A stretch of 63,125 bases of DNA, the filler included, from Nemertoderma westbladi (taxonomy: Eukaryota > Animalia > Xenacoelomorpha), in the NCBI GenBank assembly GCA_032718475.1. It is 3 parts of 3 records of this genome, joined end to end, with 100 filler letters (N's around TTAATTAATTAA, not from the genome) between each part and the next. Parts side by side here need not be neighbours in the genome. Positions count along the whole stretch, not along the records: positions 21,140 to 50,468 come from JAUCBJ010008106.1; 2 more parts are not named here. The stretch is one strand, 5' to 3'. Made by a program: the position numbers and the translations under genes. Positions 29,203 to 60,738 of the stretch are shown in pieces (position 1 is the first letter of the stretch; each line of letters begins with the position of its first letter). A model generated the notes under the pieces. The model was not told the DNA's origin. It saw nothing but the letters and a program-made list of their open reading frames with translations, and searched no databases.

Positions 29203-32200
29203 TAACTGTACAAGCTCTATAGTTCCACTAACTGTACAAACTCTATAGTTCCACTAACTGTACAAACTCTATAGTTCTACTAACCCTTCCAAATCTATAG
29301 TTCCTCTAACTGTACAAACTCTATAGTTCCACTAACTGTACAAACTCCATAGTTCCACTAACTTTACAAACTCTATAGTTCCACTAACTGTACAAACTCT
29401 ATAGTTCCACTAACTGTACAAACTCTATAGTTCCACTAACTGTACAAACTCTATAGTTCCACTAACTGTACAAACTCTATAGTTCCACCAACTGTACAAA
29501 ATCTATAGATCCACTAACTTTACAAACTCTATAGTTCCACTAACTGTACAAACTCTATAGTTCTACTAACCCTTCCAAATCTATAGTTCCTCTAACTGTA
29601 CAAACTCTATAGTTCCACTAACTGTACAAACTCTATAGTTCCACTAAATGTACAAACTCTATAGTTCCACTAACTAAATGTACAAACTCTATAGTTCCAC
29701 CAACTGTACAAAATCTATAGATCCACTAACTTTACAAACTCTATAGTTCCACTAACTGTACAAACTCTATAGTTCTACTAACTGTACAAACTCTATAGTT
29801 CCACTAACTGTACAAACTCTATAGTTCCACTAACTGTACAAACTCTATAGTTCCACTAACTTTACAAACTCTATAGTTCCACTAACTGTACAAACTCTAT
29901 AGTTCCACTAACTGTACAAACTCTATAGTTCCACTAACCCTTCCAAATCTATAGTTCCTCTAACTGTACAAACTCTATAGTTCCACTAACTGTACAAACT
30001 CCATAGTTCCACTAACTTTACAAACTCTATAGTTCCATTAACTGTACAAACTCTATAGTTCCACTAACTGTACAAACTCTATAGTTCCACTAACTGTACA
30101 AACTCTATAGTTCCACTAACTGTACAAACTCTATTGTTCCACTAACTGTACAAACTCTATAGTTCCACTAACTGCACAAACTCTATAGTTCCACTAACTG
30201 TACAAACTCTATAGTTCCACTAACTGTACAAACTCTATAGTTCCACTAACTGTACAAACTCTATAGTTCCACTAACTGTACAAACTCTATAGTTCCACTA
30301 ACCTTACAAACTCTATAGTTCCACTAACTGTACAAACTCTATAGTTCCACTAACTGTACAAACTCTATTGTTCCACTAACTGTACAAACTCTATAGTTCC
30401 ACTAACTGCACAAACTCTATAGTTCCACTAACTGTACAAACTCTATAGTTCCACTAACTGTACAAACTCTATAGTTCCACTAACTGTACAAACTCTATTG
30501 TTCCACTAACTGTACAAACTCTATAGTTCCACTAACTGCACAAACTCTATAGTTCCACTAACTGTACAAACTCTACAGTTCCACTAACTGTGCAAACTCT
30601 ATAGTTCCACTAACTGTACAAACTCTATAGTTCCCCTAACTGCACAAACTCTATAGTTCCACTAACCTTACAAACTCTATAGTTCCACTAACTGTACAAA
30701 CTCTATAGTTCTACTAACCCTTCCAAATCGATAGTTCCACTAACTGTACAAACTCTATAGTTCCACTAACTGTACAAACTCTATAGTTCCACTAACTGTA
30801 CAAACTCTATAGTTCCACTAACTGTACAAACTCTATAGTTCCACTAACTGTACAAACTCCATAGTTCCACTAACTGTACAAACTCTATAGTTCCACTAAC
30901 TGTACAAACTCTATTGTTCCACTAACTGTACAAACTCTATAGTTCCACTAACTGCACAAACTCTATAGTTCCACTAACTGTACAAACTCTATAGTTCCAC
31001 TAACTGTGAAAAACTCTATAGTTCCACTAACTGTACAAACTCTATAGTTCCCCTAACTGCACAAACTCTATAGTTCCACTAACCTTACAAACTCTATAGT
31101 TCCACTAACTGTACAAACTCTATAGTTCTACTAACCCTTCCAAATCGATAGTTCCACTAACTGTACAAACTCTATAGTTCCACTAACTGTACAAACTCTA
31201 TAGTTCCACTAACTGTACAAACTCTATAGTTCCACTAACTGTACAAACTCTATAGTTCCACTAACTGTACAAACTCCATAGTTCCACTAACTGTACAAAC
31301 TCTATAGTTCCACTAACTGTACAAACTCTATAGTTCCACTAACTGTACAAACTCTATAGTTCCACTAACTGTACAAACTCTATAGTTCCACTAACTGTAC
31401 AAACTCTATAGTTCCACTAACTGTACAAACTCTATAGTTCCACTAACTGTACAAACTCTATAGTTCCACTAACTGTACAAACTCTATAGTTCCACTAACT
31501 GAACAAACTCTATAGTTCCACTAACTGCACAAACTCTATAGTTCCACTAACCTTACAAACTCTATAGTTCCACTAACTGTACAAACTCTATAGTTCTACT
31601 AACCCTTCCAAATCTATAGTTCCACTAACTGTACAAACTCTATAGTTCCACCAACTGTACAAAATCTATAGATCCACTAACTGTACAAACTCTATAGTTC
31701 CACTAACTGTACAAACTCTATAGTTCTACTAACCCTTCCAATCTATAGTTCCTCTAACTGTACAAACTCTATAGTTCCACTAAACTGTACAAACTCTATA
31801 GTTCCACTAAACTGTACAAACTCTATTGTTCCACTAAACTGTACAAACTCTATTGTTCCACTAACTGTACAAACTCTATAGTTCCTCTAACTGTACAAAC
31901 TCTATAGTTCCACTAAACTGTACAAACTCTATAGTTCCACTAACTGTACAAACTCTATAGTTCCACTAACTGTACAAACTCTATAGTTCCACTAACTGTA
32001 CAAACTCTTTAGTTCCACTAACTGTACAAACTCTTTAGTTCCACTAACTGTACAAACTCCATAGTTCCACTAACTTTACAAACTCTATAGTTCCACTAAC
32101 TGTACAAACTCTATTGTTCCACTAACTGTACAAACTCTATAGTTCCACTAACTGTACAAACTCTTTAGTTCCACTAACTGTACAAACTCCATAGTTCCAC

Positions 32201-32503
32201 TAACTTTACAAACTCTATAGTTCCACTAACTGTACAAACTCTATAGTTCCACTAACTGTACAAACTCTATAGTTCCACTAACCCTTCCAAATCTATAGTT
32301 CCACTAACTGTACAAACTCTATAGTTTCACTAACTGTACAAACTCTATAGTTCCACTAACTGTACAAACTCTATAGTTCCACTAACCCTTCCAAATCTAT
32401 AGTTCCACTAACTGTACATACTCTATAGTTCCACTAACTGTACAAACTCTATAGTTCCACTAACTGTACAAACTCTATAGTTCCACTAACTGTACAAACT
32501 CCA
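29203..32503. repeat. Satellite array of the 26-bp unit TAACTGTACAAACTCTATAGTTCCAC, about 125 copies
   Basis: Head-to-tail, highly homogeneous, with recurring variant monomers. Confidence 0.97.
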
Positions 32504-32853
32504 TGATGGGATCTGTACTGTAGTTATCTATATACTGTTACTACTGGTAATTCATCAGTGTTGTGTTATGGACTGACTCTCTTCTACCGGTGCCTGTTGT
32601 GTTGTGTTGAGGCTGGAAATATATGGCTTAGGGCTATTAAGTACTGAAGTACCTACCGTTTATTCTAGTAACGAATAGAACATGGCGCTGCGAGTAGGAA
32701 GCTCTAGGGCTAGGGCTATTAAGTACTGAAGTACCTACCGTTTATTCTAGTAATGAATAGAACATGGCGCTGCGAGTAGGGTCATTATCCTCGGAACTGT
32801 GAATCATATAACCTGTCCCAGTGACTTATTGCTATAGGCCTACCGCTCAAAAC

Positions 32854-34158
32854 ATGGCTGACATGGAGACGCGCTTAAGGAAAACTCACAGTGGTTTCAA
32901 ATCGAATTTTACACGATTGGCTAATCGGTTTGAGGTGTCGATCGCAAATATACAAAAACTCTCGGTTGACGAACGACCCCAAACAATAATCGATGAACTC
33001 CGACGCCATAAAGAGAAACTGGAATTGGCGTACGATAAAATCGGCAAATCATTAGAGACGCTGCGCGCTCACGACGTGGATTGTACAGCCGATGACGGCC
33101 ACTACGACGATGTTACTGCACATATTTCGGGACTAGACAGCATATTCACTGTTATAATTAGCGAATCCGCTAAATTTTCGGGCAGACGGCCACCAGGATC
33201 CAACCCAACAAACACACCGGTAAGTAAGAGCGACAACGCACCAAGAGCAACGGCGAATCGACCGCCGGTTCTCGATGATGAAGTCGATATAAAGAAATTT
33301 GCTTGGTGGCGAATCGCGAGGAGCAACTACGCAAGGACGATTAAACTCCAAAATCAACCGCGAGATGAACAAATCTCAGCTTTCTTCGGTTACTGTAGTC
33401 CAACATTGCTCTCTAAACTGCAATATGTTGTAGAAATTCCACAGGATACAACATTAACATTAGATCAAGTCATCGAAAAATTCGAATTGTATTTGAAAGA
33501 AAAGCACAACATTGCGTTAGATCGATGGGAGTTGACAACTTGCAAACAACAGTATTCCGAATCGTTCGACAGCTACTATACTAAATTATGTGAAGCTGCG
33601 GACACCGCCGGGTTGCGTGACATGGATGAGGATGCGTGGATGAGTACGTTGATCACCGTCGGAATATTCGACGAGGAGATCCGCCAAGATTTATTGGCTA
33701 AATCCCCCACACTCAACCATCGGGAAACTGTAAAATTTTGTCGCAGTGAGGAGGCGGCACGTGCGCATTCTAAGAGAATGAAAACGTCCAGATCGGCAGA
33801 GATGGCGACATCCGCGGGGTTAAACTCACAAAAACAACGGGGCCGTTCGTCAACACACAAGAAATCTCCCTCGAAATCACGATATCAATCCCAAAATCGC
33901 TCACCCAGTAAAGGGGCTGAGTTTGAATCAGATAAATGTCAGCGCTGTGGGTATGTGCAGCACGGACACAGGGGCAGATGTCCCGCCATGGGTAAGATAT
34001 GTAATTTCTGTAAGAAAAAGAATCATTTTTCAAACATGTGTCTGTGTCGCAATAAAAGTGCGAATGCTACATCAGCTGACATTAATATAAATAACAATAC
34101 AAGTGTGTCGTCAGCGGTGAACATTGCAACGTGTGGGCACAATAAAATCAATGATTAG
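32854..34158 (+). CDS. gag: Gag with tandem zinc knuckles
   Basis: CKQQYSESFDSYYTKL capsid motif; CQRCGYVQH...CPAMGKICNFCKKKNHFSNMC double knuckle typical of Mag elements. Confidence 0.85.
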   Translation: MADMETRLRKTHSGFKSNFTRLANRFEVSIANIQKLSVDERPQTIIDELRRHKEKLELAYDKIGKSLETLRAHDVDCTADDGHYDDVTAHISGLDSIFTVIISESAKFSGRRPPGSNPTNTPVSKSDNAPRATANRPPVLDDEVDIKKFAWWRIARSNYARTIKLQNQPRDEQISAFFGYCSPTLLSKLQYVVEIPQDTTLTLDQVIEKFELYLKEKHNIALDRWELTTCKQQYSESFDSYYTKLCEAADTAGLRDMDEDAWMSTLITVGIFDEEIRQDLLAKSPTLNHRETVKFCRSEEAARAHSKRMKTSRSAEMATSAGLNSQKQRGRSSTHKKSPSKSRYQSQNRSPSKGAEFESDKCQRCGYVQHGHRGRCPAMGKICNFCKKKNHFSNMCLCRNKSANATSADININNNTSVSSAVNIATCGHNKIND

Positions 34159-34402
34159 TGTGGGCATAGTTAATGACTGTGCTAAGAAAGAATTTATTGC
34201 TGATTATATTTCAGTACCCGATACCGGTTCCGATATAACTGTAGGTGGGAGTCAATTTTGTAGGGATATGGATATTGATTTACTAAACCTACTGGAACCA
34301 GATAATGGGCGGCGACTGCTTAATATCAATGGGAAGGAACTTAAGCAGTTGGGCCGACTCATATTATATATTACTTTAGAGGGGCAAGAAATACGAGAAG
34401 AG

Positions 34403-36354
34403 AAAATCGTTTTGAGAAAATCGCACTTAAAGAAAAATTAAATTTTCAAGTCAAAATTTTCAATTTTTTTATTTTCAATGTGATATATGCAGTTTTTAAT
34501 GAGGAATCCAAATCTGTTAACGGTATGTTAACAGCTAGCTTAGTTTTGGAGATAATCAGCTTTGATTGAGAGTAGTCAGAAGTTTTGAAATTTAAATCTC
34601 ATTCCCGATAGATATTATGTTGTTCTATGTAGATTTACTCTTATAAATTAATTTATATGCCTTATTATTCCAATCCAATAGAAAACTATCTTCCAGTTAT
34701 TTTCAGTATGTTTGCTTGTCAATCGGTCTGTCTGTTTGTCTGTTTATCTGTCAAGTGTTGTCAGTCATTTTATAAATTTTTAGATCTTGGCTCAAAAATT
34801 ATAATTTTGATGGTATATAAGGGTTTTCGAGGTCGTTAAACACGATAAAACATCTAAAAATATTTTCTGGTAATGCAACTACCATTTTTGGTGCTATTTT
34901 GGACCCACAGGACGAAAAGTACAAGTAAAAAAATGTCAAATTAAAAAATGTTGTGTTTCGATTGATAATTCTGAATGTATGCGGGTTTTTGAGGTCGGTG
35001 ATCACGATAAAAAATGTTAAAAATATTTTTGGCAATACAACCATCATTTTTGGTGCTATTTTTGCCCCAGGACGAAAAGTACAAGTAAAAAATGTCAAAT
35101 AAAAAATTGTTGTGTTTCGATTGATAATTCTGAATGTATTCGGGTTTTTGAGGTTTGTTGTTCACGTGCTGCTCGAAGTCCCAGACCAGATAACTAGCTA
35201 CCTCAGTTGTTCACGTGCTGCTCGAAGTCTCAAACAAGATAACTAGATAGCTTTGTTGTTTACCTTGCTGCTCGAAGTCCCAAACTCGATAAAAACGTAG
35301 CATATTTGTGCACATCCTGCTCGAAGTCCCAGACTAGATAGCAAGCTACCTTTGTTGTTCACGTGCTGCTTGAAGTCCCAGACTAGTCTACTATAACTAG
35401 CTACCTTTATTGTTCACGTGCTGCTCGAAGTCTCAAACTAGATAACTAGCTAGCTTTGTTGTTCACGTGCTGCTCGAAGTCCCAAACTAGATAACTAGCT
35501 ACCTTAGTTGTTTACGTGCTGCTCGAAGTCCCAAATTAGACAACCATAGTTACCTTAGTTGTTCATGTGCTGCTCGAATTCTCAAACTAGATAACTAGCT
35601 AGCTTTGTTGTTCACGTGCTGCTCGAAGTCCCAAAATAGATAGTCATAGTTAGCTTACTTGTACCAGCGCTGCTTGAAGTCCCAGACTAAGCTACCTTAG
35701 TTGTTCGCATGCTGCTCGAAGTCTCAAACTAGATAATTATCTAGCTTTGTTGTTCACGTGCTGCTCGAAGTCCCATACTAGATAACTAGCTACCTTAGTT
35801 ATTCACGTACTGCTCGAAGTCTCAAACTAGATAACTAGCTACCCTAGTTGTTCATGTGCTGCTCGGAGTCCCAGACTAGATAAAAACCCAGCATAGTTGT
35901 TCACGTGCTGCTCGAAGTCCCTGCCTTAGATAACCATCCAGCTTAGTTGATCACGTGCTGCTCGAAGTCCCAGGCTAGAAAAAAAAAGGCAGCATAGTTG
36001 TTCATTAGTTTGCTAATGTACATTCCTATTACACATTTTGCCCCTCAAGCCTCAACATCACAACACAACAACAGACCCACTCCGATTTAGCAAACTCACT
36101 TTCAAGATATTTTGTAAGTAATCCCTACTACTATTAAAATACAACAAAAATTTTAAACGCGATTTACTCATAATAGTATATTTTCCATCTGGTTGTCTTG
36201 CCAATACTTAATTTCTAATAACTCTTGATGTACTCATCCAATCAGGATGATTTATAGCTCATTAGAGAGCTGAGATGTTGGCCAATCACATGCAATATCT
36301 AACTCAAAAACTTCATTTTCACCTTAAGGTACCTTTTCGCTTTCACTGCCACAA
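34403..36354. mobile_element. Unclassified non-autonomous element inserted in the Gypsy protease
   Basis: The protease (PDTGSDITV...IREE) resumes at ~36355 as IFICDGIDNLYLSLKACKAL. The insert has ~120-bp direct repeats (34815-35155) and a 49-bp minisatellite. Confidence 0.7.
35155..36005. repeat. About 49-bp minisatellite, ~17 copies
   Basis: Unit GTTGTTCACGTGCTGCTCGAAGTCYCARACTAGATAACTAGCTACCTTA. Confidence 0.9.
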
Positions 36355-36659
36355 ATATTCATATGTGATGGTATTGATAACCTTTATTTGTCACTAAAAG
36401 CTTGTAAAGCTTTGCGTCTAATTCATGAGAACTGGCCCCGACCACTTCCAGAAATATATTTCAATACTCGTTCCTGTTCTACTGGCATGTCCTGTCCCTC
36501 CGGTACTTCTAAAACTGAAAGTATTTTCAATAAAAATAAAAGGAAAATTTTTATTGAAAGCTTACCTGTAAATCCGACCCCTGCTGAAGGTCTGTCAGTG
36601 CGTGATAAATTAATAACATTTACCCAACTGTATTTAATTGTGATGAGGCATTAAAAACA

Positions 36660-39425
36660 ATGAGGGGTGACGTCATTGGTGAACCGATGAAAATATTATT
36701 GCAAGATAATTTTGTACCGTATGCTGTCCATGCGGCCCGGAAAATTCCTTTCGCTAAAAGAGAGGAAGTTAAGGCCGAAATAGATACTTTGGTGGCAAAG
36801 GGAATAATTGAAGCTGTAGGAGATCGTCCTACAGCATGGTGCCACCCACTCGTTGTGGCTAATAAACATGATGGCAGCCTTAGAATCTGTGTCGATTTGA
36901 CTAATTTAAATCGTCAAGTAAAAAGAGTTGTTCACCCCAGTACCTCTCCCAGTGAGGTACTGGCCGAAATCCCTCCAGATTGCAATTATTTTAGCACCCT
37001 GGATGCCAAAACGGCGTATTGGCAGATCCCCTTGGCCCCAGAGGCTTGTGACCTAACGTGTTTCATAACACCATGGGGTAGATTTGTGTATAACCGTGCC
37101 CCCATGGGTTACATTAGCACGGGCGATGCGTATAATTTGCGTATTGATATGGCATTAACAGGTTTAACTGAAGAAACCTATAGACTAGTAGACGGCATGG
37201 TTCTGGCTAGTAGTAATTTTAAAACTCACATAAATTTAGTATGTGATATTCTAGAACGATGCACAAAATTTGATATTACAATAAATCCAAAGAAATTCAA
37301 GTTGGGGCATGATGAAGTGAAATTCGGTGGTTATTTAATATCGGCTAATGGTATAAAAGCCGACCCTGACAAGGTCAGTGCTATAGCAGACTTCCCATCC
37401 CCTACTAATAGGATGGAGCTCAGATCTTTCTTAGGTTTAGTTCAACAGCTATCACAATTTACTCCAAAAATTAGTGCAATGGCTAGTCCACTACGTGATA
37501 TATTGAAAGTAAAGAATGTGTTTATTTGGACCCCGGTGCACGAGATTGCTTTCAAAAACGTTAAGTTAGCTCTTGTGACACCCCCTGTGTTAGCGAATTT
37601 TGATAAAACGGCAGAGATTAAACTGGAAACGGACGCCGCAAAGAAAAATGGCGGTCTAGGTTTTTCGCTTTTGCAAAAACGTAAAACAGATGACGACTTT
37701 AGATTGGTCCAATGCGGGTCCCGATTTTTGCGAGATTGCGAGACTCGATATGCTGTTATTGAACTTGAATGTCTTGGGATACAATGGGCAATAAACAAAT
37801 GTCGGTTGTATCTACAGGGTTTACAGCATTTTACTGTGGTAGTAGACCACTGCCCTTTACTTCCTATTATGAATAAATACACCTACGACATGATCGACAA
37901 TGTTAGAATATTGAACTACAAAATGAAATTGTCTGCTTACAATTATACTCTTGAGTGGAAAAAAGGCAAAGATAATTGTATTGCAGATGCATTATCCAGG
38001 GCCCCAGTTTTCGACCCACACAGTGATGACGTCGACGATGACGAATTCCCAGTAGATGTGGCCGCAGCTGTGTTTCAAACAGCTGTTGACAACATTAATG
38101 ATGAATTTTCCAAACCAAAGAAAGAAAATAAATATTATAAAGACCCAATTCTAGAACAATTAAAGATTGTTGCTAGAGAGGATAGTGATTATCAAGTATT
38201 GATAAATGCGATTGAGAAAGATTTTCAAACACCTGAAAGTGATAATTGTTTCGTGCAGCAAGTAAAAAAAATGTGGAGTGAGTTATCAGTTGAGGACGGC
38301 CTGGTCCTTAAAGGTCAACGTATAATAATTCCAAAGGCTGCTAGGGCTGATGTTTTGAAACGCCTACATTCCTCTCATCAGGGAATAGAGCGTACGAAAC
38401 GACGGGCGCGACAATCGGTTTATTGGCCCGGAATTGATAATGAAATCAAACAAACTGTAGAATCATGTGAAAATTGTCAATATTGGTTGCCTAGCAACGT
38501 CAAAGAGCCCTTAGTATCAGAGCCTATCCCCTCCAGAATTTTTGAGTCCGTTTCAGCGGATCTATTTTACTTCGGGGGTAAAACGTATCTAGCCTATGTC
38601 GATAGGCTATCAGGCTTTCCATTTGTCACGCAATGGCGTGATGATCCTACTTCTTCGCAGGTTGTGACGAAGATTCGTGATTATTTTATATTAACGGGAG
38701 TACCTGTCCGTATACGGACAGATGGCGGGCCTCAATTTGACTCGAAAGTTTTCCGAGATTTTCTTTCACGTTGGAATGTGGAATTGGTACTATCCTCTCC
38801 CGAATATAGTCAATCAAATGGCCACGCCGAAGTAACGGTGCGGATATTAAAGCAACTTGTCGGAAAGGCCGATGCTGGAAGAATCGATACCGACAAATTC
38901 CTCCAAGCACTATTAGAACTTAGGAATACCCCACGGGAGGACGGCCGTTCTCCTAGTGAAATCGTATATGGTCATCCAATGCGATCCAGCGTGCCAATGC
39001 ACCACCGTGCCTTCGATAAAAATTGGCAGGTAAATGCTGACAAAGCAGACGAAACTGCATGGCGGGCGTCGAAGTTTGCCAAACTTCGTTATGATCGCAC
39101 GGCAAGAACTCTATCAGAACTTGAGGTTGGGACTAATGTCCTTATTCAAAACAAACGGTCAAAACGATGGTCGAGGACTGGTGTGATAGTGGAGAAGGGA
39201 CAACACCGGGACTATCAAGTCAAACTCCCATCCGGTCGCATATTACGCCGCAACCGTCGTTTCTTGCGTCGCCGAGTCGAATCAGCGATTCCTTCACATC
39301 ACGAGATACTCACACCTCCAGATCCAGTATCACCTGTAAAACGTGTTAATACTCGTTCGATTCTTAAACCTATTTTACGGCGCAGTTGCAGAGAGAGAAA
39401 ATCCGTGGTTAGATTCAAAGTTTAG
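36660..39425 (+). CDS. pol: Pol: RT, RNase H, integrase (RT catalytic DD reads DG)
   Basis: LRICVDLTNLN, STLDAKTAYWQIPL, LVDG; ETDA, ELE, DHCPL, ADALSR; HSSH...CENC; SADLF, TDGGPQF, NGHAE. Confidence 0.9.
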   Translation: MRGDVIGEPMKILLQDNFVPYAVHAARKIPFAKREEVKAEIDTLVAKGIIEAVGDRPTAWCHPLVVANKHDGSLRICVDLTNLNRQVKRVVHPSTSPSEVLAEIPPDCNYFSTLDAKTAYWQIPLAPEACDLTCFITPWGRFVYNRAPMGYISTGDAYNLRIDMALTGLTEETYRLVDGMVLASSNFKTHINLVCDILERCTKFDITINPKKFKLGHDEVKFGGYLISANGIKADPDKVSAIADFPSPTNRMELRSFLGLVQQLSQFTPKISAMASPLRDILKVKNVFIWTPVHEIAFKNVKLALVTPPVLANFDKTAEIKLETDAAKKNGGLGFSLLQKRKTDDDFRLVQCGSRFLRDCETRYAVIELECLGIQWAINKCRLYLQGLQHFTVVVDHCPLLPIMNKYTYDMIDNVRILNYKMKLSAYNYTLEWKKGKDNCIADALSRAPVFDPHSDDVDDDEFPVDVAAAVFQTAVDNINDEFSKPKKENKYYKDPILEQLKIVAREDSDYQVLINAIEKDFQTPESDNCFVQQVKKMWSELSVEDGLVLKGQRIIIPKAARADVLKRLHSSHQGIERTKRRARQSVYWPGIDNEIKQTVESCENCQYWLPSNVKEPLVSEPIPSRIFESVSADLFYFGGKTYLAYVDRLSGFPFVTQWRDDPTSSQVVTKIRDYFILTGVPVRIRTDGGPQFDSKVFRDFLSRWNVELVLSSPEYSQSNGHAEVTVRILKQLVGKADAGRIDTDKFLQALLELRNTPREDGRSPSEIVYGHPMRSSVPMHHRAFDKNWQVNADKADETAWRASKFAKLRYDRTARTLSELEVGTNVLIQNKRSKRWSRTGVIVEKGQHRDYQVKLPSGRILRRNRRFLRRRVESAIPSHHEILTPPDPVSPVKRVNTRSILKPILRRSCRERKSVVRFKV

Positions 39426-41289
39426 TTTCAGTTTCAAACTGATGTTTTAAACTCAGAAAGAAAAGAAGGTGATGGGATCTGTACTGTAGTTATCTATATA
39501 CTGTTACTACTGGTAATTCATCAGTGTTGTGTTATGGACTGACTCTCTTCTACCGGTACCTGTTGTGTTGTGTTGAGGCTGGAAATATATGGCTTAGGGC
39601 TATTAAGTACTGAAGTACCTACCGTTTATTCTAGTAACGAATAGAACATATGGCATTTCTGTTATTTGTATAATTAGTAATTAACCTTATATACGATACC
39701 ATATATGTTAAACAAACTACCCCTGCCTAACCAATCAAGACACAAAGACTGCTCTACTATTAAACAGGGGTAATCAGGAGCGTGTTATTATTAAGGTAGG
39801 GCCGCTAAATACAAAACCGCTACTCACCGTTAGATGGCGCTAACCTGCCGTCCACTAATATATTTTACTAATTTTCTACGGCATCTGCTAATTACTTGTT
39901 CCTTTCTCTACCGATTGCTCGATAGAGAGCTAACTGTTCGAATATATGAGCCACGCGGGAATAACCAAAACAATAACCCGAATCGGCTCCCTAATCTGAC
40001 TTAAAACAAGTGTGAGAGGCTTTACACTCAGAGTGTATTCTTACGGCCTAATCTTGCTGCTAGAACGCGCTAATAATTACGTCTTTTCTAATCTAATCTA
40101 ATCGCAAATACTGGGGTTCCCTAACGGAATGTGTGAATGTGAGAATATTTAAACAATCAAAAAATCGGTACAGTTTTTTTTTTATTATTAGGGCTAATAC
40201 CTACTGTGGGACCAAACTTGCCTTCGGCTGGCTTTAGGCCAGCAATTTACTAATGCGAGCTGTATACTGTATACTACGATCTGACTTATTGCCCGCTAAT
40301 TCAAATAACCGCCCAGCGTGAATAGTGTACGGTACTCTAAATTATTACCTTAACTACTCTCCGCTATGCTGCGTACAAATTCTTAATTTTACTAATTAAT
40401 TACAGTCACAAATATGCAACAGCGTACTAATTACTAAGTGTTCCAGAAAGCGCAATTCTAATTTATTACGCAACGGGTTGCACTAGTAACAGTCTAATTA
40501 CCGTATTATTTTCGACCTAATCAGTAATTATTTATAGTAAACTAAGAAATAGAAATCAATCAAAGGGAAAAGAGCACCTATCTAAGCATTCGTGATTTAT
40601 TAGGCACACTTTAGTGACACACCAATCAGCATAACAACCTATAGTTCACAACTCGCAATCTACAGTTCGCAGGTTGTTTGCGACGTAGCCTACAGTTTAG
40701 CTCGCAATGTAAAGCACGCAGGCCTCTCCCGGGTACATCTAGGCTTCCTAACTAACCCAATTCCTGCCCCCCCTAATACTACAAAATAGAGACAAAATCT
40801 GGATTATCAACCCCTAATTACTGTACCAGCGAGCGGCCCTTCGCTCTACACTGCAACTCCCCAACCGCAACAGTGACCTCCCTGCCAGCGTCGCCTGCCT
40901 TTGAATCATCCGCACTCTCTTTGTTGCTAACCCCCCAATGCGCCCGCCGCACCTACCGATAACTTAGCCCCCCATTAGAATGAATAGCTACCGCAACGGC
41001 GCATGCAAATCACAAAGTCTGACAGTCTAAGAAATCCCGTAGGATTATTGCATCGAAAAGGAATCACATAGAACCATTAACTAAAGGGTAGAAATCATAG
41101 TTCCAGTTGTAATTAACAGTAATCATTGGGATTGATTGAGAAACACAAGCAAGAATCAGCAAAGATTACAAATTAGCGAATCATTGCAAGAAATAATCGA
41201 AAGGTAGAAATTACACAGAAAATGCTAAACTACTAAACTGCACAGCAAGTACTACAGAAGCACATACTACAGAAAAGGTAAGGTAAGGA

Positions 41290-41420
41290 ATAAGGAATAT
41301 TATGGTACCGGCAAAACGCCAATTTATAGGTGATTCAAGAGGGATGATGCAATCGCTCTCTCATTGGCTCCCCAATCCGCCCTAACATTGGACCAACCTA
41401 GAGGCAGCTAGGCCAATAAG
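41290..41420 (-). promoter_or_regulatory. Pol II promoter: CCAAT boxes, TATAAAT, initiator-like TTATTC
   Basis: CCAAT/ATTGG x4 in 41363-41416; TATAAAT on the minus strand at ~41321-41327; pyrimidine initiator-like sequence about 30 nt downstream. Confidence 0.5.
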
Positions 41421-42147
41421 GAAGCCGGATTGTGAACCTATCGCTCCCAGAAATCACAAATCATCACCATATAAGGTAATTTTGCCGATGCTTAATTTAG
41501 CGGTACTAATAATATGATGCACAAACATTAATTTAGCGCAATTTATAGAGAAAATTAAAACCAGTAGCTAGCCCCATCAAGGCTAATAACAGCAAGCCCA
41601 CATCCAGGGTCCAAACAGGAAACTTGCTAACCTGGAACTATCTACTTATATCTTATTACAAATTACATAGGTAGGGCTACATACTATACAAAATGGACGA
41701 ATTCAAATATATGGGCGTTTTATTTTCCTTATCTAAATGTCATTGCGCGTTATTATGTCTTATCTAAATAATTATACTGCATAACGGCTAATATATTATA
41801 CTGTATAACGGACTAATATATGTACAGCACCATATACCGTAACACCGCTCCAAGGGAAATCAGGCAATGTTTCCCTCCACTTGTAGAAGAGTATAAGGCG
41901 ATGTATACAAAACAAAATAAATTCGCTTTCAAATAATCTAAATGACTTGATACTATAATAATTCTACTATTTACAAATATTGCTATAGATATTGCATAAT
42001 GAATTGCATACAAATTAAATTTACAAAATATTATCTCTTTCAATGTTAACGATTATTACATACAAATTAAATTTACAAAAATACTGCTTTCCCATTCGTT
42101 CTACATAATGATTACTACATACAAATTAAATTTACAAAAATATTACT

Positions 42148-42724
42148 TCCTTTATAAAACTAACGTATAGAAGGTGTTTCCTTTATAAACTAACGTATAT
42201 AAGGTGTTTCCTTTATAAACTAACGTATAAAAGGTGTTTCCTTTATAAACTAACGTATATAAGGTGTTTCCTTTATAAACTAACGTATATAAGGTGTTTC
42301 CTTTATAAACTAACGTATAAAAGGTGTTTCCTTTATAAACTAACGTATAGAAGGTGTTTCCTTTATAAACTAACGTATAGAAGGTGTTTCCTTTATAAAC
42401 AAAACGTATATAAGGTGTTTCCTTTATAAACTAACGTATATAAGGTGTTTCCTTTATAAACTAACGTATAAAAGGTGTTTCCTTTATAAACTAACGTATA
42501 GAAGGTGTTTCCTTTATAAACTAACGTATATAAGGTGTTTCCTTTATAAACTAACGTATAGAAGGTGTTTCCTTTATAAACTTACGTATAGAAGGTGTTT
42601 CCTTTATAAACTAACATATATAAGGTGTTTCCTTTATAAACTAACGTATATAAGGTGTTTCCTTTATAAACTAACGTATATAAGATGTTTCCGTTATAAA
42701 CTAACGTATAGAAAGTGTTTCCTT
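42148..42724. repeat. 30-bp tandem repeat CTTTATAAACTAACGTATA(G/T/A)AAGGTGTTTC, ~19 copies
   Basis: Direct tandem array within the putative U3. Confidence 0.95.
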
Positions 42725-43119
42725 TTGTTGCCGTTATCCCTACACCAGGGGGGAAAAACGCCGATGCTGGAGACATGACTTAACAGACCACCGAGCCCCG
42801 GCCAGTCACCGGATATTGATTGTGGGGAGGGAATATTTTCTGAGATGCAGGGTTGCGGTTGAGAAAAAGCTGCATTAGTTGGATATACTATTTAATGTAA
42901 CTGAACTCTGTTGAACCTTGTTCAACAATATTGAACCTTGATTAAGAATAATTTTGGGCTTCCCCAAATCAATATACACCAAATATTCACAATAATTATA
43001 CACGATAATATAAATCCCTACGGTATATTATTTAATAACCCACTGTTCGCTCAGAATTTTAGCCTACCTAATGTTCCCAGATTTTCCCTCAGTCCCAGTC
43101 TTAGTGCCGTAGTGTCGGT

Positions 43120-43935
43120 GTCGGTCGACCCTGTCGCGTGTCCGTTCCACCCCTCACGAACCCCGAAGGGAACGATCATCGAGAACCAGCACGGCTTGGC
43201 TAATGGTCGGTCCAGTCGGTAGACTCTGTCGCGTATCCGTACCACCCCTCTCGAACCCCGAAGGGTTCGGTCATCGAGAACCAGTACGGCTTGGCTAGGA
43301 GTCTGTCGTGTCGGTGGACCCGTTCGCGTGTCCGTTCCACCCCTCACGAACCCCGAAGGGTTCGATCATCGAGAACCAGAACGGCTTGGCTAGGGGTCCG
43401 TCGGTTCATCACAGAAACCCAACCACCTAGGCTTTCCGAGTCCGTTTCAGGCTCGTAGTCGCTTCGGCAGCCGAGAAACTGCTCCGAACAGTCGGTAGGC
43501 CAGTAGAGTCTAGTCGAGTCTAGTCCTTTGTCTTTCGACCCCGTCGCAAATCCCAGTACAAGCAGTCAGCGTTCCGAGTTCTTTTCAGTCTCGTAGTAGC
43601 TGCCGTTGACCAGAGACCGCTAAGGGCAGTTCTCGTCAAACCCGTCTTGTGGCCAGCCCTTTCGCATGTCCGTCCCACCCCTCGCGAACCCCGAAGGGAT
43701 CGGTCATCGAGAACCAGTACGGCTTAGGTCAGGGGGCAGTCGTTAGTTGGCCGCCCGTTCGCGTGTCCGCTCCACCCCTCACGAACCCCGGGGTTCGATC
43801 ATCGAGAACCAGAACGGCTTGGCTACTAAGGGGCCGTCGGTGCCCGTCGCAAATCCCTGACACAAGCAGTCAGCGGTCCGAGTTCTTTTCAGTCTCGTAA
43901 TGGCTGCTGTTGGCCAGGGACCGCTAAGGGCAGTC
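43120..43935 (-). ncRNA. Array of structured RNA hairpins: 5 type A (kink-turn, UUCG-capped), 2 type B, 1 type C
   Basis: Units of ~90 nt with compensatory base changes in their stems. G-U wobbles and the C(UUCG)G loop favour the minus (element-sense) strand. Confidence 0.65.
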
Positions 43936-44407
43936 CTTGTCCTTTAGGCCTGGCGCATTACCAAATCCACCCCTACAGGCAGCAGGAAGTTGGCCAGGGC
44001 CTAATAGTACTCAGGCTAACCTGAATACTGCTTGCATTTTCCATCCCCCCTGGCCCTTACAACTATGAAATTATTCCCGTACCCTGTAAGTTGCCCCAAA
44101 GTTCGCCCATAAATCGCCCCCAGTTTATTGAATGTGCCCAAAACCCATGGTCCCGCACCCAGTAGTAATATCGGAATAATCAATTTTAATAAAATACAAA
44201 AATATTCAACTCGCGTTATGTAAAGTTGAAATACCGCGAACAGTCCCCCCCAATGACCTTCGTGAAGTCTGTCGGTAGATTGAGTTTGCGTAGGTCATTC
44301 CCAATATAAAAAACCCAAATTTAATATTGCATAGTTTTTAATTAATTTGGCCTAGAGTTTGTATAAAAATAAATGTTCGATAAATGTTCCTGGAATATCC
44401 CAATCCA

Positions 44408-47008
44408 CTATTTCTTTTTCTGATACGCCTTTCGTCTCTTCGCCCGTCGACTCTCATCGATCGCTATGGCTGGTAGAGGAGCGTCAACATCCATCGTGAG
44501 TAACGCTTCGGCTTGTCTCCTGGCGGCTCTTCCTTTCGAAGGCATCGGGATCATGTCGGTTCGTCTTTCCAACTCGGAGTTGCGAGCCTCGAGGAACCAC
44601 TCTCCGTCACCGAACTCTTCTTTATATGAGTATAATTGTCTAATGACTTCGAATGGGCCGAATAATCCGGCGCTCAGTAGCAGATCCACGTAATGGAAAG
44701 GTAGCGTGGCCGTCGTGTGGAGGCGTTCCGGGAAGGAGAAATATCCGCGCGCCATCTCCTGCGCGATATTCCGAGCGTTTCTCCGAACCTTGGTCCTTAA
44801 GTGGCTGTTTGCGTATGTCTCAAACATGACCATATTGCCCATAGCGGTAACGTCTTTGGTTGGACATTTGATATAGCAGCGGGGGCTAGCGGAATGTCCA
44901 CGGAAACCGCACGTGGTGCAGAGGTTATAAAGGATCGGACAGACCGAAACGTCGTGGCCCGATATCGCGCAGTATGGGCAATAGAGTATCCCGAGGAGCT
45001 GGAGGCAAGAATCGGTAACCCGATTCCTTCTGCCGCGTGGGCACTGCTCCGAGCCGCAGTCGCCGCATACCTCCAACTGCATTTCTCGACCGGGGAATAT
45101 CGGAATCGGGACGCCGACGTAGTATTCGAGTCGTCGGTCGCTCTTCGGAATATTCTCGGTGGTCGGTAGCCCGCGGAATGCTAGGCTTTTGCGTAGTATG
45201 TTCTCGCTCCGATAACCCTCTTTGTGTCCCGCTGGTCTCAACTCGGATGACCGTTTCTGGCGGTGGATCCATTCAGTTTGCTCGGCGTACCAACGGGTTA
45301 GTCGCATAGGGTCCTGAGGAACGGCGGGTGTAGTAGCCACCGCTGGTCGGCGAAGAGGTGCCGGGGTTTTCGACGGAGGGATACCGAGGAGATCGTCGGG
45401 GGTCGGCGCATCGCTGGGGCCCTCCTCGACCAGTATCGCTGAGCGGGTCCGTTGTTGGCTGGTACTCGGAATCTCCGACGACCAATCTTCGCCGCCCGGG
45501 AAAGGATACGGGGATAACCGTTGGCATATGTCGCCGAAGTCGCTCAATGCAGCTGTAGTGGCTACCTCTCTCGCGGGGCTACCGGAGCCGCGTGGGGTGT
45601 AGACGCCTGCTCTCTTCATCGGTTCGGCCGAGGCAACCCGTTTGGCGGCCGGTCCGTACGCGGCCTCCGGCTCGAGTTGTCGCTTCGGGGTGGAGAGTAG
45701 AACACCCTCGTTTAGCCATATCTCTTCCCCTTCCGAAGAGATCAGAGGCTCCTCCGCACCGAGAAGCTCGGTAATCGTAGGGATATCGTAAGGTCCGCTC
45801 TCGTCCCAGGATTCGATAACGGCGGGCGTTTTCGATTCTCCCGGTGTAATGTTCTCGACCGCTTTAAACGCGTGGTTTATAACCTCATTCCAGTCGTAGT
45901 CGACGAAGGAAAGGGGAACCGCCGTGATGAGGTTATCTAGAGCCTTGCAGATAAACTTAGCGACGGTGTAGCATTCCATAACGACGTAGATATAGCTCCG
46001 TCGATCGGGATTCTCCCACCTTTGGTGTATCGTCCACTTCCGATCGACGTCCTTCCATCGACCCTCTCGCTCGCTCTTTATCTCTAATCCCGGGTATCCG
46101 CCGTATATTTTATTATAGTCCCGGAATTTCTGGGGTTTGAAGTCGATACCGCCGTTGAGCACAGCGAGGTAGCCGATCCCGGATTTCGTCGGTCTCACTT
46201 CTTGGAATCCTCGCATGAACTCGGCGAATCGTAACCAGGCTAGCAGCGTTTGAGTGTCGATGCAATGGCTAAGTGCGTTGAGGTCGTTTCGTCGGTTTCT
46301 TCCTGCGGGAGCGTTCGCGTAGTCGTTCCGGACGTCCGCCTTGATATCCGACCCGATTTTAATGACGTCGAAGTCGAAGAGGATCTTTTGGATATCCGGA
46401 GGCAGCAACCAGATCGCTCCGGCTGCCTGCACTTCCTGTCTGGGTGTCGGGAATATTCGGCACACCAGTACCAAACCGTCCAGGGTTCTGAGGACGACGA
46501 CTAAGGATCGACCGTATTCTTTCGCCCCGTACTTTTCCTGGTAGTCGTCGCGGTTTTGGATAATCGATACGCGTTCCTCTCGAAGCGTCGCCGTACACTC
46601 CGACAGGTTTCCCCAGTGGGCGAGGTACGTACTCTTGTCGTCGACGAAACTTTGACATCTCGCCAACATAATCGCTTTCGAGGTGGGCGTCGCGTTTCCC
46701 TCGTTGTCGTAGATCAAACATCGGGATCTGTAGACGCTCTGCCGGAACGTTTCCCAAAACGACGAATCGTCCCCTCCGGTTGCCTTTGCGTTCCGAGTTC
46801 TTTTCAGTCTCGTACTAGCATCGGCTAACCGGAGGGCTCGTAGATTCTTAGAATCCGGTCCCTCTCGCCCGGTGAATTTAACGTCTCGTACGTTCTCATT
46901 TAGCAGAGTGCTCCAATTTGTATCAAAGTCAGGGGATCCAGGTTGCGAATATTCCAGTAGATCTATCGTGTTACGTAATTCGCCGATAATTTGGCGATTT
47001 GGGTCCAT
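44408..47008 (-). CDS. 866-aa accessory protein: DEDDy (WRN/EXD/RNase D-like) 3'-5' exonuclease fold, disordered linker, CCHC zinc knuckles, basic tail
   Basis: Exo I-like LIYDNEG; SLVVVLRTLDGLVLVCRI; LPPDIQKILFDFDVIKIGSDIKAD (Exo II); CIDTQTL; KSGIGYLA; RWE...YIYVVME (Exo III, D to E). CPYCAISGHDVSVCP...CTTCGFRGH...C. C-terminal RRAKRRKAYQKKK. The ORF is uninterrupted. Confidence 0.7.
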   Translation of the reverse strand: MDPNRQIIGELRNTIDLLEYSQPGSPDFDTNWSTLLNENVRDVKFTGREGPDSKNLRALRLADASTRLKRTRNAKATGGDDSSFWETFRQSVYRSRCLIYDNEGNATPTSKAIMLARCQSFVDDKSTYLAHWGNLSECTATLREERVSIIQNRDDYQEKYGAKEYGRSLVVVLRTLDGLVLVCRIFPTPRQEVQAAGAIWLLPPDIQKILFDFDVIKIGSDIKADVRNDYANAPAGRNRRNDLNALSHCIDTQTLLAWLRFAEFMRGFQEVRPTKSGIGYLAVLNGGIDFKPQKFRDYNKIYGGYPGLEIKSEREGRWKDVDRKWTIHQRWENPDRRSYIYVVMECYTVAKFICKALDNLITAVPLSFVDYDWNEVINHAFKAVENITPGESKTPAVIESWDESGPYDIPTITELLGAEEPLISSEGEEIWLNEGVLLSTPKRQLEPEAAYGPAAKRVASAEPMKRAGVYTPRGSGSPAREVATTAALSDFGDICQRLSPYPFPGGEDWSSEIPSTSQQRTRSAILVEEGPSDAPTPDDLLGIPPSKTPAPLRRPAVATTPAVPQDPMRLTRWYAEQTEWIHRQKRSSELRPAGHKEGYRSENILRKSLAFRGLPTTENIPKSDRRLEYYVGVPIPIFPGREMQLEVCGDCGSEQCPRGRRNRVTDSCLQLLGILYCPYCAISGHDVSVCPILYNLCTTCGFRGHSASPRCYIKCPTKDVTAMGNMVMFETYANSHLRTKVRRNARNIAQEMARGYFSFPERLHTTATLPFHYVDLLLSAGLFGPFEVIRQLYSYKEEFGDGEWFLEARNSELERRTDMIPMPSKGRAARRQAEALLTMDVDAPLPAIAIDESRRAKRRKAYQKKK

Positions 47009-47549
47009 ATTTACGATTATATCCGTTACAAATTAGTTCAGTTAATTGTAAGTCCAGAAAGTCTGAAACTATAGCGATAGCAGAATAATTCAGTTTTTTT
47101 TTATTTAATTCAGTTTATTAATAACATTGCTATATAGGCATCTATCATCTTATTGCTAATACATTCAGCATTTACAGTTACTATAACTATACATTTATAT
47201 CCAACCAGTTTTTATGACTTTTTTGTCCTTTCTTTTTTCTGATTCTTTTCTTTGACCTTTTTTATACCTTTTTTTTGTCTTTTTTCATTTCATTATTATT
47301 TCATCTCATTTCATTTATTTCCACATATATTTCAACATTTAGTTCCACCATTTATTTCCACATTTATTTATTTCCACATCATCATTGGGTTTATAGCCCC
47401 CCGGCTATCATCATTGTTATAAGCGCAGCACCAGGGTGCGCATCATTTTATTTTCATCAGTATACGCGTCATCATTCAGGTTTATAGTAGAGTTGTCTGA
47501 TCCTTTTCATCGTTTCCAACTATATTCAATCATTTTCTTTGGTTAATCT

Positions 47550-47985
47550 TTGTCGTGGAAGGGGTGTTACGCAGCAATCTGGGATCTACAGCTGGACTCG
47601 TTACACCGCCTACGCCCCAAACTGCACACGTAACGGACAATGAAGACGCTGGGAGTGAAGTCACGTGGATGCACCAGGGACCCACCAGAATAACACTCCC
47701 AACAACATAAAGCTCAGTCGACGAAGTCATGTGGGATGGGGTTACGCAACATTCTGGGATCTACACCTGGACTCGTTACACCGCCTACGCCCCAAAATCC
47801 ACGCAACGGTCCCACCAGAATAACGCGACTGAGAAACATAAAACCCTCTATCGTCGAAGTCATGTGGATGCACCATGGACCCACCAGAATAACGGGATAG
47901 AGGGGGTGTTGCGCGGCAATCCGGGATCTACAGCTGGACTCGTTACACCGCCTACGCCCCGAACTGCGCACGCAACGGACAACAT
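47550..47985 (-). repeat. Three ~180-bp structured repeats between pol and the accessory ORF
   Basis: Shared core GGGATCTACA(G/C)CTGGACTCGTTACACCGCCTACGCCCC, enclosed by GTTRCG/CGYAAC stems. Confidence 0.75.
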
Positions 47986-48255
47986 AACATACTGCGATGA
48001 ATACAATGAATTCCACTTCAAATCTTTTCCATTTCCAATAATCCAATACCGTTGGTCCTGATGACCAAAATCAGGGTAAACAATACATAAACGACCCTGC
48101 GTCAGTCGAAACATCTGCAGGGTGATGCTGGACTCCACATAACACACGAGGAAACACAAATACCATTGCGTGGTTACAGTTGGTTTAAAGGGGGTCCATA
48201 ATTCGTTGTCGATAAATCACAGTTAAAAAGAGTTTGTCAACATGATGAGAAGGGT

Positions 48256-50468
48256 TTAAACACATTTGTCATTGTCACCGATGTCTGCAGCAGGATCCGT
48301 AGTAGGGAACTTATCACCTCTTGTAGAATCACCACTGTCATTGCCTTCAAGAAGGCACAGCTTCTGGATGGGGCGTTGGTAGTGGCCCGCTTTCGTTCGT
48401 ATCGTCACAGTCCTCGCAAGTCCGTCTTTGCTTGGGTGTATGGTCACGACCCGCGCCACAGGCCAGTGAACGCGGTCTTTGAGATCTTCTTTAACTAGTA
48501 CCATGTCGCCAACTGCGACGTTCCGGTAGGTGTTGTTCCATTTCCTCCTGGTCCGGAGGGTTATGAGGTATTCCTGGGCCCAAATTCTCCACAAATGCGC
48601 TGCCAACGCTTGGGCCTTTTTCCAGTTTGTATGTTTCGCGATCTCGTTGGGATCCGGGAACATGGTTTCCGGGAGGAGATGGGTTTTGGGTCTCCCCAGT
48701 AAGTGGTTAGGAGTGAGGGGTTCCAGGTCTGTGGGGTCGTCGCGGATAGGAACGATGGGTCGGTTGTTCAGGGTAGCCGTGATCTCGCAGAATGTTGTGC
48801 GGAGGGTGTCATGGGTTACCCGGGTATCGCCTAGAGCGACGCGCATGGATCGTTTCACTAGGTCGATCAGTTTCTCCCATACCCCGCTCGTATGGGGTGC
48901 TAAGGGGGTCTGGAAGTGCCACTGTATCTGGTGTTCCTTCCAGACTTGGCATGCGGTGTTATCGGTAAACCATCCCTCGATCGCCTCTCTAAGTTCTCTT
49001 TCTCCTCCCACAAAGTTTGTACCATTATCGGAATACATGTGGCGACATGTCCCGTTGTTCGCCACGAACCGACGCAGAGCATTGATGAATGCGTGTTGTG
49101 TCAGATTTACCCTGATATCTAGGTAAATTGCCCTAGACCTTAGGCAGGTGAAGATGGCTCCCCAGCATTTGATGTTGGATCGTCGTTCAATAACCGTGAA
49201 CGGTCCGAAACAGTCCACTCCGGTGACGTAGAATGGTGCGGAATCCGCTTGTAGACGGGTGGCTGGTAAGTCGGCCATCTTTTGGGTGATTGGTGGCGCT
49301 AGGTAACGTCTGCAGGTGAAGCAACGTTTCAACACTTTCCGGATCAGTGGCTGGATGTGGGTGATCCAATATCTTTGTCTTATATTAGCTATAATCCAAT
49401 TCTGTCCTGCGTGGTGGTTGTCCTCGTGACATTGTAGAATTAATAGCTTAGCTAGTGTCGACGTTCCGGGCAGAAGCGCCGGGTATTTAACCTCATATTC
49501 GACCGGGGCGTTTGCCATCCGGGTATTCAGTCGGATCAGTCCGTCCTCTCCCATCATTGGTCTCAGTTGGTAGACTGGGCTGTCCGGTTTCAACGTTTTG
49601 CCCGCACTAAGTTGTTCCCATTCATCGGGGAAACTTTCTTTCTGGACATATCTAACAATACACTTCTCCGCAATAATGAGTTCTTGTATATTCCGTTGAA
49701 CTATCGGTTTGTTGTTTTTCCACCGTAGGAAGTTGCGAAGGGTTATAACGTGATAGACGAGCCGTCTCATGGATGAAGTTCGCTCGATCAACCGATGTAA
49801 AGACGCCGCTAGTTGGGTGATCGTCGCGACGTTATAGTGCCTGCCCGAGTCCTTTGCAGGCTCAGTCAGACAACTATAAATTTCCACCGCGTTGCTTCGA
49901 TGGATTTTACGGATCTCTTTATCGTCCTCGGAGTATTTTCCGCTATCGAGCTCGGGGTCGAATCGGGTACTCCATGTTAATTGTGGCTGCCGTAGGAATT
50001 CCGGGCCTGTAAGCCAGAGTTTACTTTTACCGAGTTGTTTTGGGGTGGCGCCTCGGCTTGATAAGTCCGCTGGGTTTTCCTTCCCGTTCACGTGATGCCA
50101 CTGTTCTCGGCCGGTACACTGTTTAATCTCTGTGGCTCGGTTTGCAACAAACGTGGTGTGACGCCGTGATGGAGAGTGGAGATAATAGAGAACTATACTC
50201 GAATCTACCCAGAAGTGTTGAGATTCTATGGGGATCCGTAGGTTCCGCATGGCCATGCGATTCTGTCTTACTGCCCAAACTGCAGCTTGTAGCTCGAGCC
50301 TCGGAATCGTTGCTACGAATTCCCCGGATACTGTCTTTGCTTTGGAGAATAAGAAGCTTGTATCGCCGTTTCCATCGTTACTTAGTCTCCGCAAGAAGGT
50401 TACTACGCCGATTCCGGTATTCGAAGCATCCGAAAAGGTATGGAGCTGGAAGATATCGGTGGGCAGTT
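48256..50468 (-). CDS. pol: BEL/Pao pol, C-terminal part: RNase H and integrase
   Basis: FSDAS, TIPRLELQAA, FWVDS, FVANR, WHHVNGKENPADLSSRG; H...HHAG...CFTC; GVDCFGP, YSDNGTNFVG, GVWE; VAVGDMVLV...WPVARV...DGLARTV...RPIQKL. Confidence 0.93.
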
Positions 50469-50568
50469 NNNNNNNNNNNNNNNNNNNNNNNNNNNNNNNN
50501 NNNNNNNNNNNNTTAATTAATTAANNNNNNNNNNNNNNNNNNNNNNNNNNNNNNNNNNNNNNNNNNNN
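50469..50568. other. Assembly gap with TTAATTAATTAA linker
   Basis: Same format as 21040-21139. Confidence 0.95.
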
Positions 50569-60432: not shown

Positions 60433-60738
60433 ACTTGTTCAGGGAAGTTTGAATATGCAAAATTACAAATAATAGACAACAAAAATATAAAATTGGATGT
60501 GCAGTTATTCATAATTAGCACTGTTAAAGTACTGGTGTTGTTATATTTATATTTAATAAATTGTATGATTTATTATTATTCCCCCCAAAAAAAATATGTA
60601 ATAAAAAATTATACTCAGAATAAGGTGTAACAGAACAATATTAAAGTACAGTTGAATACGAAAATACGGTACCTAAATAAAGTAACCTAGTAACTTCATT
60701 ATCTAACTAACTAAAGCATTGGTTAAGTTTTGCTAACA

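Follow-up and report, generated by a model that had tools for sequence, protein, structure and literature searches.

An array of candidate kink-turn hairpins downstream of a BEL/Pao pol gene in Nemertoderma westbladi

What do repeated, structured hairpins do in the 3' RNA of a retroelement, and do those described here act as kink-turns (k-turns)? The locus lies in a 63,125-nucleotide stretch of three joined genomic parts of Nemertoderma westbladi (GCA_032718475.1), hereafter the window, which is repeat-rich and in which a protein-domain search identifies a serpin gene, a LINE, a Ty3/Gypsy element and a BEL/Pao pol gene. The 3' part of this pol (48256-50466, minus strand) encodes Peptidase_A17 (E = 5e-17), an integrase zinc finger (integrase E = 1e-8) and DUF5641 (E = 6e-30), the combination by which BEL/Pao is recognized. 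Its 5' side is truncated by an assembly gap at 50469-50568, and gag and 5' pol are absent from the assembly. Pol has 2,612 homologs among 7,979 candidates; the best 120 listed share 35-39% identity with it, and the named ones come mostly from fish and marine invertebrates. Pol is followed on the minus strand by a 1.2-kb spacer, ORF3 (44408-47008), a G+C-rich block with the hairpins (57% G+C vs 30-47% in the adjoining kilobases), a 30-bp tandem array of 19 copies (42147-42725) downstream of the hairpins, and a candidate LTR start.

The 30-bp array likely belongs to the element, since the sequence before it passes gradually into its first units. The candidate 3' LTR start (41328-41844, minus strand) was read by eye from a TGTT at 41844 that follows a short purine run, which is absent from the output of a purine-tract scan, and contains promoter-like words (CCAAT at 41391 and 41367, a GC box at 41382 and TATAAA at 41328). 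No 3' end of this LTR was found, and neither LTR is delimited within the window, in which there are also no tRNA genes. An A+T-rich stretch with TTTCAG (47063-47090, minus strand), some 50 nt before the start codon of ORF3, is a candidate splice acceptor, and its position suggests a candidate spliced subgenomic mRNA. The region 42700-47200 is multi-copy, as 7,222 and 2,729 variant contigs mapped to it in two DNA runs from different samples. Depth 3' of ORF3 is about twofold higher, which may reflect graph fragmentation and gives no reading of copy number, and one contig joins 43796 to 43172, which would be a shorter array or a shortcut taken by the graph across shared sequence. Strand, order and spacing lead us to infer that pol, ORF3 and the hairpins form one element. 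The hairpins belong to the 3' RNA of a mobile element, as the first-pass annotation of this DNA had proposed.

The array spans 43126-43933 on the minus strand, downstream of ORF3, and consists of eight hairpins of two types, arranged on the RNA as B1 A1 A2 B2 B3 A3 A4 A5. Five tandem k-turn hairpins had been described in the first-pass annotation; these are the A units, which are indeed present on the minus strand, not as one tandem run but as a pair and a trio split by B2 and B3 and preceded by B1. The B type, its copy in ORF3 and a basal UA/GA module shared by both types were missing from that description. The A units are 82-84 nt long and are located at 43753-43834 (A1, bulge starting at 43803), 43656-43737 (A2, 43708), 43316-43399 (A3, 43370), 43221-43304 (A4, 43275) and 43126-43209 (A5, 43180). 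An A unit begins with a basal stem of 4-6 bp, which a UA/GA loop separates from two G-C pairs; above these come a 4x4 YAAG/AYAY loop and an 8-bp helix, and the k-turn region then leads into a 7-bp helix with a C(UUCG)G cap. As first reported, four units have this cap; the loss of two cap nucleotides is also real, affecting the first unit on the RNA (A1) and not the fifth. The sequence CGAACCC, ascribed to every unit, is found in three of the five (A1, A3 and A4, with 7 bp past the third pair), with A2 reading CGAUCCC (one U.U) and A5 CGUUCCC (two U.U). A3 is the best formed unit, and the lower stem of A2 is the most decayed. The units are 80-91% alike and are joined by a recurrent ACCGAC-like linker (eight CCGAC in the array), and their arrangement seems to vary between copies, judging from short-sided contig joints. 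The UUCG caps, the G.U pairs and the lower minus-strand energies in nine of nine units indicate that the structures belong to RNA of the coding strand.

How closely do the A units follow the rules for k-turns? A k-turn is defined by a 3-nt bulge with tandem G.A/A.G pairs (PMC4382518), and C:G pairs at -1b:-1n and 4b:4n, as in Kt-7, are favourable (PMC5689011; PMC8191799). Folding induced by ions alone depends on the third pair (3b.3n), with C.A being good, U.U middling and C-G poor (PMC4382518). Snu13p selects U.U at 3b.3n and U at L3, and the combination of U.U and a closed 3-nt bulge is better suited to Snu13p than to SBP2 (PMC1874613). At the sequence level, all five A units combine the 3-nt bulge with the tandem pairs, the core reading C-G, GAU bulge, G.A/A.G, third pair and C-G throughout, and the k-turn interpretation proposed for them fits these rules closely, with C:G at -1b:-1n and 4b:4n, U at L3 and U.U in several units. 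The third pair varies in RNA order as U.U, C.C, U.U, C.A, U.U from A1 to A5, which is the series of the first-pass annotation read in the opposite direction. The canonical helix can form C-G, U.G, C-G and U.G in all five units and is weak, the kink register providing two Watson-Crick and two G.U pairs only, above a 2-nt bulge.

The consensus of purine, purine and U with C:G was embodied in a strict k-turn-in-hairpin pattern, written after the units had been seen, which matches four of the five units and nothing else on both strands of the 63 kb; A5 is left out by its U.U pairs. Shuffles of A3 match this pattern once in 20,000 and a looser one 340 times in 20,000. On the minus strand the looser pattern has 15 sites, of which four are in the array and seven in a GA-rich run near 19390. 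Since the units are duplicates, these statistics amount to about one unlikely event rather than five. In folding tests, A3 and A4 reach z-scores of −3.7 and −3.2, and A1, A2 and A5 stay at about 0. Four of 27 pairs are changed on both sides among the five A units; the basal stem accounts for three of these and the lower helix for the fourth. As initially listed, GGACCC/GGGUCC, AGACUC/GAGUCU and CGACC/GGUCG occur as basal stems, while the exchange of CCGUAC/GUACGG for CCGUUC/GAACGG is compensated between A4 and A3 but broken in A2 (A.G) and A5 (G.A). In a shuffle test, 44 of 500 replicates reach the count of four pairs and 9 of 500 the covariation score, and a rival CUC/GAG register yields an identical score. 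The covariation invoked for these hairpins is modest and located in basal stems; no compensated change occurs among the five units in the helices flanking the kink, and the covariation does not test the kink itself.

The CUC/GAG register, which the first-pass annotation had set against its own reading, is the one selected by ViennaRNA, as both minimum free energy and centroid structure, and by RNAalifold, as a prediction rather than from probing. In all five A units it is better by 3.6-6.0 kcal/mol, and the pair probability of the kink register is below 0.005 (ViennaRNA), in models that leave the tertiary contacts of k-turns and the binding of proteins out of account. The free A hairpin is therefore predicted to adopt the extended CUC/GAG register with a bulge of 5-6 nt. 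Variants among genomic copies lean the other way. A survey of A4 and A3 (four runs, three samples) gave 19 variants at 2% or more, each read position by position, many of them reflecting cross-mapping of A1, A2 and A5. Two of the 19 discriminate clearly between the registers, each in favour of the kink: U>C at -2b (0.4-12% of depth) replaces U.G by C-G if the kink forms and breaks a U-A pair in the rival, and U>G at 3n (6-10% of depth) breaks the rival's G.U pair. A>G at 3n (13-63%) finds the rival unpaired either way and produces a C-G third pair in the kink. G>A at -1n (10-40% of depth) breaks the pair in both registers unless -1b changes too, and the 19 listed variants include no matching change at -1b. 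One divergent contig (depth 2.2) has U at -1b and C at -2b, making CUC/GAG impossible. The 16 core positions harbor no variant, for which the chance at such variant density is 21% (p = 0.21). Variants creating U.U in the upper stem are common and uncompensated (two variants, at 71-96% and 4-10% of depth), and the cap loss of the A1 type accounts for about 2% of mapped depth in three of the four runs. The informative copy variants thus lean toward the k-turn register. It appears very probable that the A unit is a real, selected RNA hairpin, and fairly likely that it is a functional k-turn.

The B hairpins are B1 (43841-43933, z = −3.8), B2 (43540-43628, 89% identical to B1) and B3 (43404-43489, z = −2.5), all on the minus strand. 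B1 is built of a basal UA/GA module, a long stem, a loop resembling loop E or an S-turn, a CGAG/CUCG stem and a C-UGAAA-A-G apex. B3 has the apex C-UGAAA-C-G on unrelated outer stems, with the UA/GA module in flipped orientation and tandem GA at its base. The apex common to the three consists of an ANUA/GAA loop, the CGAG/CUCG stem and C-UGAAA-N-G; loop E, S-turn and T-loop are names that may apply to these loops. A fourth copy, B0 (46771-46836, minus strand), lies within codons 58-80 of ORF3, where its apex is identical to that of B2 in 31 of 32 nt, on an outer stem of its own of 10 bp. B0 folds with a z-score of −7.6, none of 200 shuffles being as stable, and contains an exact AGUA/GAA resembling loop E of the sarcin-ricin type. 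Three mutually unrelated outer stems thus carry the retained B apex, and in one case this is within a reading frame. A GUGAUGA at the base of B3, considered as a sixth k-turn, folds as a symmetric tandem-GA loop and was ruled out.

Structured RNA is also predicted elsewhere along the element. Hairpins in the spacer between pol and ORF3 (47558-47982, minus strand) form an 83-nt repeat that is 92% identical and has UA/GA-type loops as well; a second kind of repeat in this spacer has UUAUUCUGG/UGACUU internal loops three times, and one spacer hairpin has a z-score of −4.0. From the ORF3 stop to B1 (43935-44260, minus strand) there are more predicted hairpins, including a 10-bp stem, AGUAUUCAGG/CCUGAGUACU, with a UUAG cap. 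A box C/D-like cluster at 47370-47480 (minus strand) comprises AUGAUGA at 47475, 47414 and 47385 and CUGA at 47479 and 47460, making up three of the nine minus-strand RUGAUGA found across the window. The cluster may represent an A+T-rich ATG repeat or hold further sites for L7Ae-family proteins; its sole CUGAUGA is not followed by a hammerhead stem.

ORF3 encodes 866 aa with a putative DEDDy-exonuclease-like domain, a low-complexity linker and C-terminal CCHC-like zinc knuckles. It has no Pfam match at E 0.1 and two distant homologs, P0121 and P0122, among 1.84 billion representatives (E values of 4e-5 and 7e-4 for the two). Word-indexed searches returned no homolog, and an alignment-based search returned P0121 itself only. 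No match was found for the ORF3 alignment among viral contigs, for P0121 among phages, for P0122 among plasmids, or in NCBIfam; PHROGs gave one weak match (E = 0.22), and a PF01612 search of three viral records for reference exonucleases found no loci. A C-terminal Cys/His cluster is common to ORF3 and P0121, and that of P0121 matches retroviral nucleocapsid knuckles (E = 1e-4). Language-model features (Atlas score 0.92, 157 shared features) place 24 of 30 matches in clusters in which half of the members carry PF01612, a resemblance to exonucleases that is a lead only; P0121 compared with PF01612 gives E = 0.2, and two AlphaFold models both have pLDDT below 35. At the ExoI site, where a DEDDy exonuclease has D-x-E, a three-sequence alignment shows IDVE and FDTE in the homologs and IIQN in ORF3, which therefore lacks this motif. 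By its language-model features, the N-terminal domain may resemble 3'-5' exonucleases. ORF3 appears to be under purifying selection, as indicated by an excess of synonymous changes: 20 of 29 variants, against 27% expected (p = 4e-6), these being the best-supported variants in ORF3 from the best 40 of 412 over the whole surveyed stretch.

An exonuclease domain has reportedly been described in the C. elegans element Cer13, which a literature search did not confirm. DEDDy ORF3s have been described in LTR elements of rotifers, and DEDD derivatives without activity bind RNA (PMC5408684). The bdelloid ORF3s treated there (Rodriguez et al. 2017) resemble the present one in being an extra ORF after pol, DEDDy-like and with Cys/His motifs. 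They differ in belonging to the Juno and Vesta lineages with catalytic residues intact, whereas here the neighbour is BEL/Pao, the ExoI acidic pair is absent (it is present in P0121 and P0122) and an RNA hairpin lies inside the ORF.

How might these components work together? With a rough probability of 0.45 for the whole chain, the array may be a cis-acting RNP scaffold like the retroviral CTE or RRE, with kinks induced by Snu13/15.5K and B hairpins read by ORF3. By analogy with those elements, it would be a protein-landing platform that brings the element RNA into an RNP to be exported or trafficked. The A hairpin, when free, would start in the extended register with its 5-6 nt bulge; a host L7Ae-family protein, most likely Snu13/15.5K at the U.U units, would capture GAU-GA/GA and thereby shift the register by two nucleotides into the kink, and several copies of the protein would be loaded along the RNA. 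With another register in competition, a protein would probably be required for folding, as it is for the archaeal l7ae leader, in which k-turn switching is induced by protein (PMC6298567). The ORF3 protein, as a putative nuclease-dead exonuclease fold with zinc knuckles, would read the B hairpins and UA/GA loops, and B0 in the ORF3 mRNA could provide feedback or a second loading site. Precedents for RNA export are the CTE, Rev/RRE and the CERV export protein of Cer1 (PMC10309623). The fuller proposal of a BEL/Pao modular RNA machine, in which switchable k-turns co-opt Snu13/15.5K and S-turn/T-loop hairpins are read by a dead exonuclease in a Rev/RRE-like manner, is doubtful as it stands.

Several other explanations address the same observations. 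The kinks could be architectural, folded by Mg2+ without any host k-turn protein, with B loops docking on the 4x4 CAAG/ACAC loops of the A units and the RNA being compacted or dimerised for packaging. The B apex resembles a T-loop/GAAA donor and alternates with A units, whose 4x4 loops are presumably its receptor. The C:G pairs at -1b:-1n and 4b:4n favour ion-induced folding and a C at 3b makes for good folding when its partner is not G, yet U.U is a middling and C-G a poor folder (PMC4382518; PMC5689011). With the rival register 3.6-6 kcal/mol lower when protein is left aside, and no loop-loop complementarity of at least 6 nt within the array, this explanation is unlikely. Somewhat less likely still is that the extended CUC/GAG register is itself the functional form, its conserved AUGA bulge being a site for an element protein (Gag or ORF3) and the k-turn match incidental. 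The agreement of minimum free energy, centroid and RNAalifold structures speaks for it, and the pair counts within the window fit it equally, but the register-separating variants break it and it leaves the exact k-turn consensus to chance, at the shuffle frequencies given above (1 in 20,000 strict, 340 in 20,000 loose). The array might also consist of protein-loaded k-turns that block exonucleases, either stabilising the RNA or releasing a stable ncRNA that sponges Snu13/15.5K. Box C/D RNAs have ends protected by their proteins, and five sites in a row with G+C-rich caps at a 3' location are suggestive of such a role; against it, no pseudoknot of the Xrn1-resistant type is evident in the array, which apparently lies about 1.3 kb upstream of the candidate LTR. 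The exonuclease-roadblock idea, already present in the first-pass annotation, found no specific support and is improbable.

Neutral amplification of a single ancestral hairpin through template switching, leaving an array without present function, would agree with units that are 80-91% alike, with the decay of A1, A2 and A5 (z about 0) and with arrangements that seem to vary among copies. It is made very improbable by basal stems that diverged with compensation, by a B apex that is conserved both on stems without relation to one another and inside an ORF under selection, and by the UA/GA module recurring in flipped form in B3; an element apparently built of recurring RNA modules counts against a neutral tandem repeat. 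Recruitment of SBP2 by SECIS-like AUGA/GA cores for UGA recoding is the most improbable of all. With their AUGA-y/n-GA core and their place in a 3' UTR, the units resemble eukaryotic SECIS elements in quartet and location, and SBP2 is able to bind k-turns with a protruding U (PMC1874613). A SECIS has unpaired AA or CC 10-13 nt above the quartet (PMC1802603), which is missing here, where a short 7-bp stem with a UUCG cap follows, the bulge is a closed one of 3 nt in place of a large internal loop, and an in-frame UGA is lacking from both ORF3 and the visible pol; the SECIS assignment was rejected on these grounds.

The scaffold reading relates the array to several known systems. Standard k-turns, such as Kt-7, U4 snRNA/15.5K, box C/D and the L30e and l7ae mRNA sites, share with the A units a U-ending 3-nt bulge, G.A/A.G pairs, C:G at -1 and 4 and a non-Watson-Crick third pair, and the l7ae leader also the likelihood of protein-induced folding (PMC6298567). 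They differ in that the present k-turns would form a five-copy array in the 3' region of a retroelement, in 84-nt hairpins together with other modules, and with a competing register shifted by two nucleotides. The MPMV CTE (NXF1), the HIV RRE (Rev) and Cer1 CERV are alike in having repeated structured RNA past the last gene and an adjoining accessory gene, here with a candidate splice acceptor. Neither sequence similarity nor a match in Rfam connects the array to them, the likeness being one of position only, and no description of k-turns as part of CTE, RRE or CERV was found in the literature searched. The B hairpins share AGUA/GAA (B0), ANUA/GAA-like loops (B1-B3) and the UA/GA at the bases of A and B units with loop E/sarcin-ricin motifs, from which B1-B3 differ by C or U in place of the bulged G. 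The Rfam comparison proposed at the outset gave zero matches over the window at gathering thresholds and zero over 41500-48400 at E up to 10. A box C/D snoRNA (RUGAUGA and CUGA with a guide) was rejected, the units having CGAUGAYC and NGA and no Rfam match, as was a hammerhead of any permutation, there being no CUGANGA in 43050-44100 and no Rfam match at E up to 10. A pattern scan of metagenome contigs gave one match, at a bacterial gene junction without the hairpin fold, and a looser pattern had 29 matches in viral contigs, none with an A hairpin; in these scans no related array from another species was found.

To our knowledge, RNA export, protection and selection in BEL/Pao elements are essentially unstudied, and a search of mostly non-subscription literature, covering titles and beginnings of abstracts, found no description of a k-turn array in an LTR retroelement. 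The structured RNA array is real, and its novelty would reside in the new setting and multiplicity of a known motif, with its function suggested by the comparisons above. If Snu13/15.5K does bind a transposon mRNA, this would constitute a new route for a mobile element into the machinery of snoRNP assembly and trafficking. A3 and A4 are short, defined and directly testable, and as a naturally occurring switch between two registers they lend themselves to tests of the published rules for k-turn folding. ORF3 represents a rare accessory protein family, with its two distant homologs among 1.8 billion representatives.

The remainder of the window contains further repeats and genes. A complete-looking Ty3/Gypsy element (32504-39649, plus strand) has 180-bp LTRs that are 99% identical, gag at 32812-34158 and pol at 36609-39425, with 2.4 kb of 159-bp and 49-bp tandem repeats between them, and no evident target-site duplication. 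Its 5' LTR is abutted by a 26-bp satellite of 127 copies with a strong strand skew (29196-32501). Perfect inverted repeats of 856 bp (3981-4836 and 11114-11969) surround an ORF of 659 aa (6521-8500) without Pfam match, and this unit (3981-11969) is possibly an unclassified DNA transposon. Positions 1-1127 hold an inverted repeat of 512 bp whose arms are 96% complementary and stand 103 nt apart. The LINE (24989-28606, plus strand) has its endonuclease and reverse transcriptase split over two frames and is flanked by inverted repeats at 24464-24863 and 28817-29124, and the serpin gene (60730-61869, plus strand) is a single ORF matching PF00079 with E = 2e-114.
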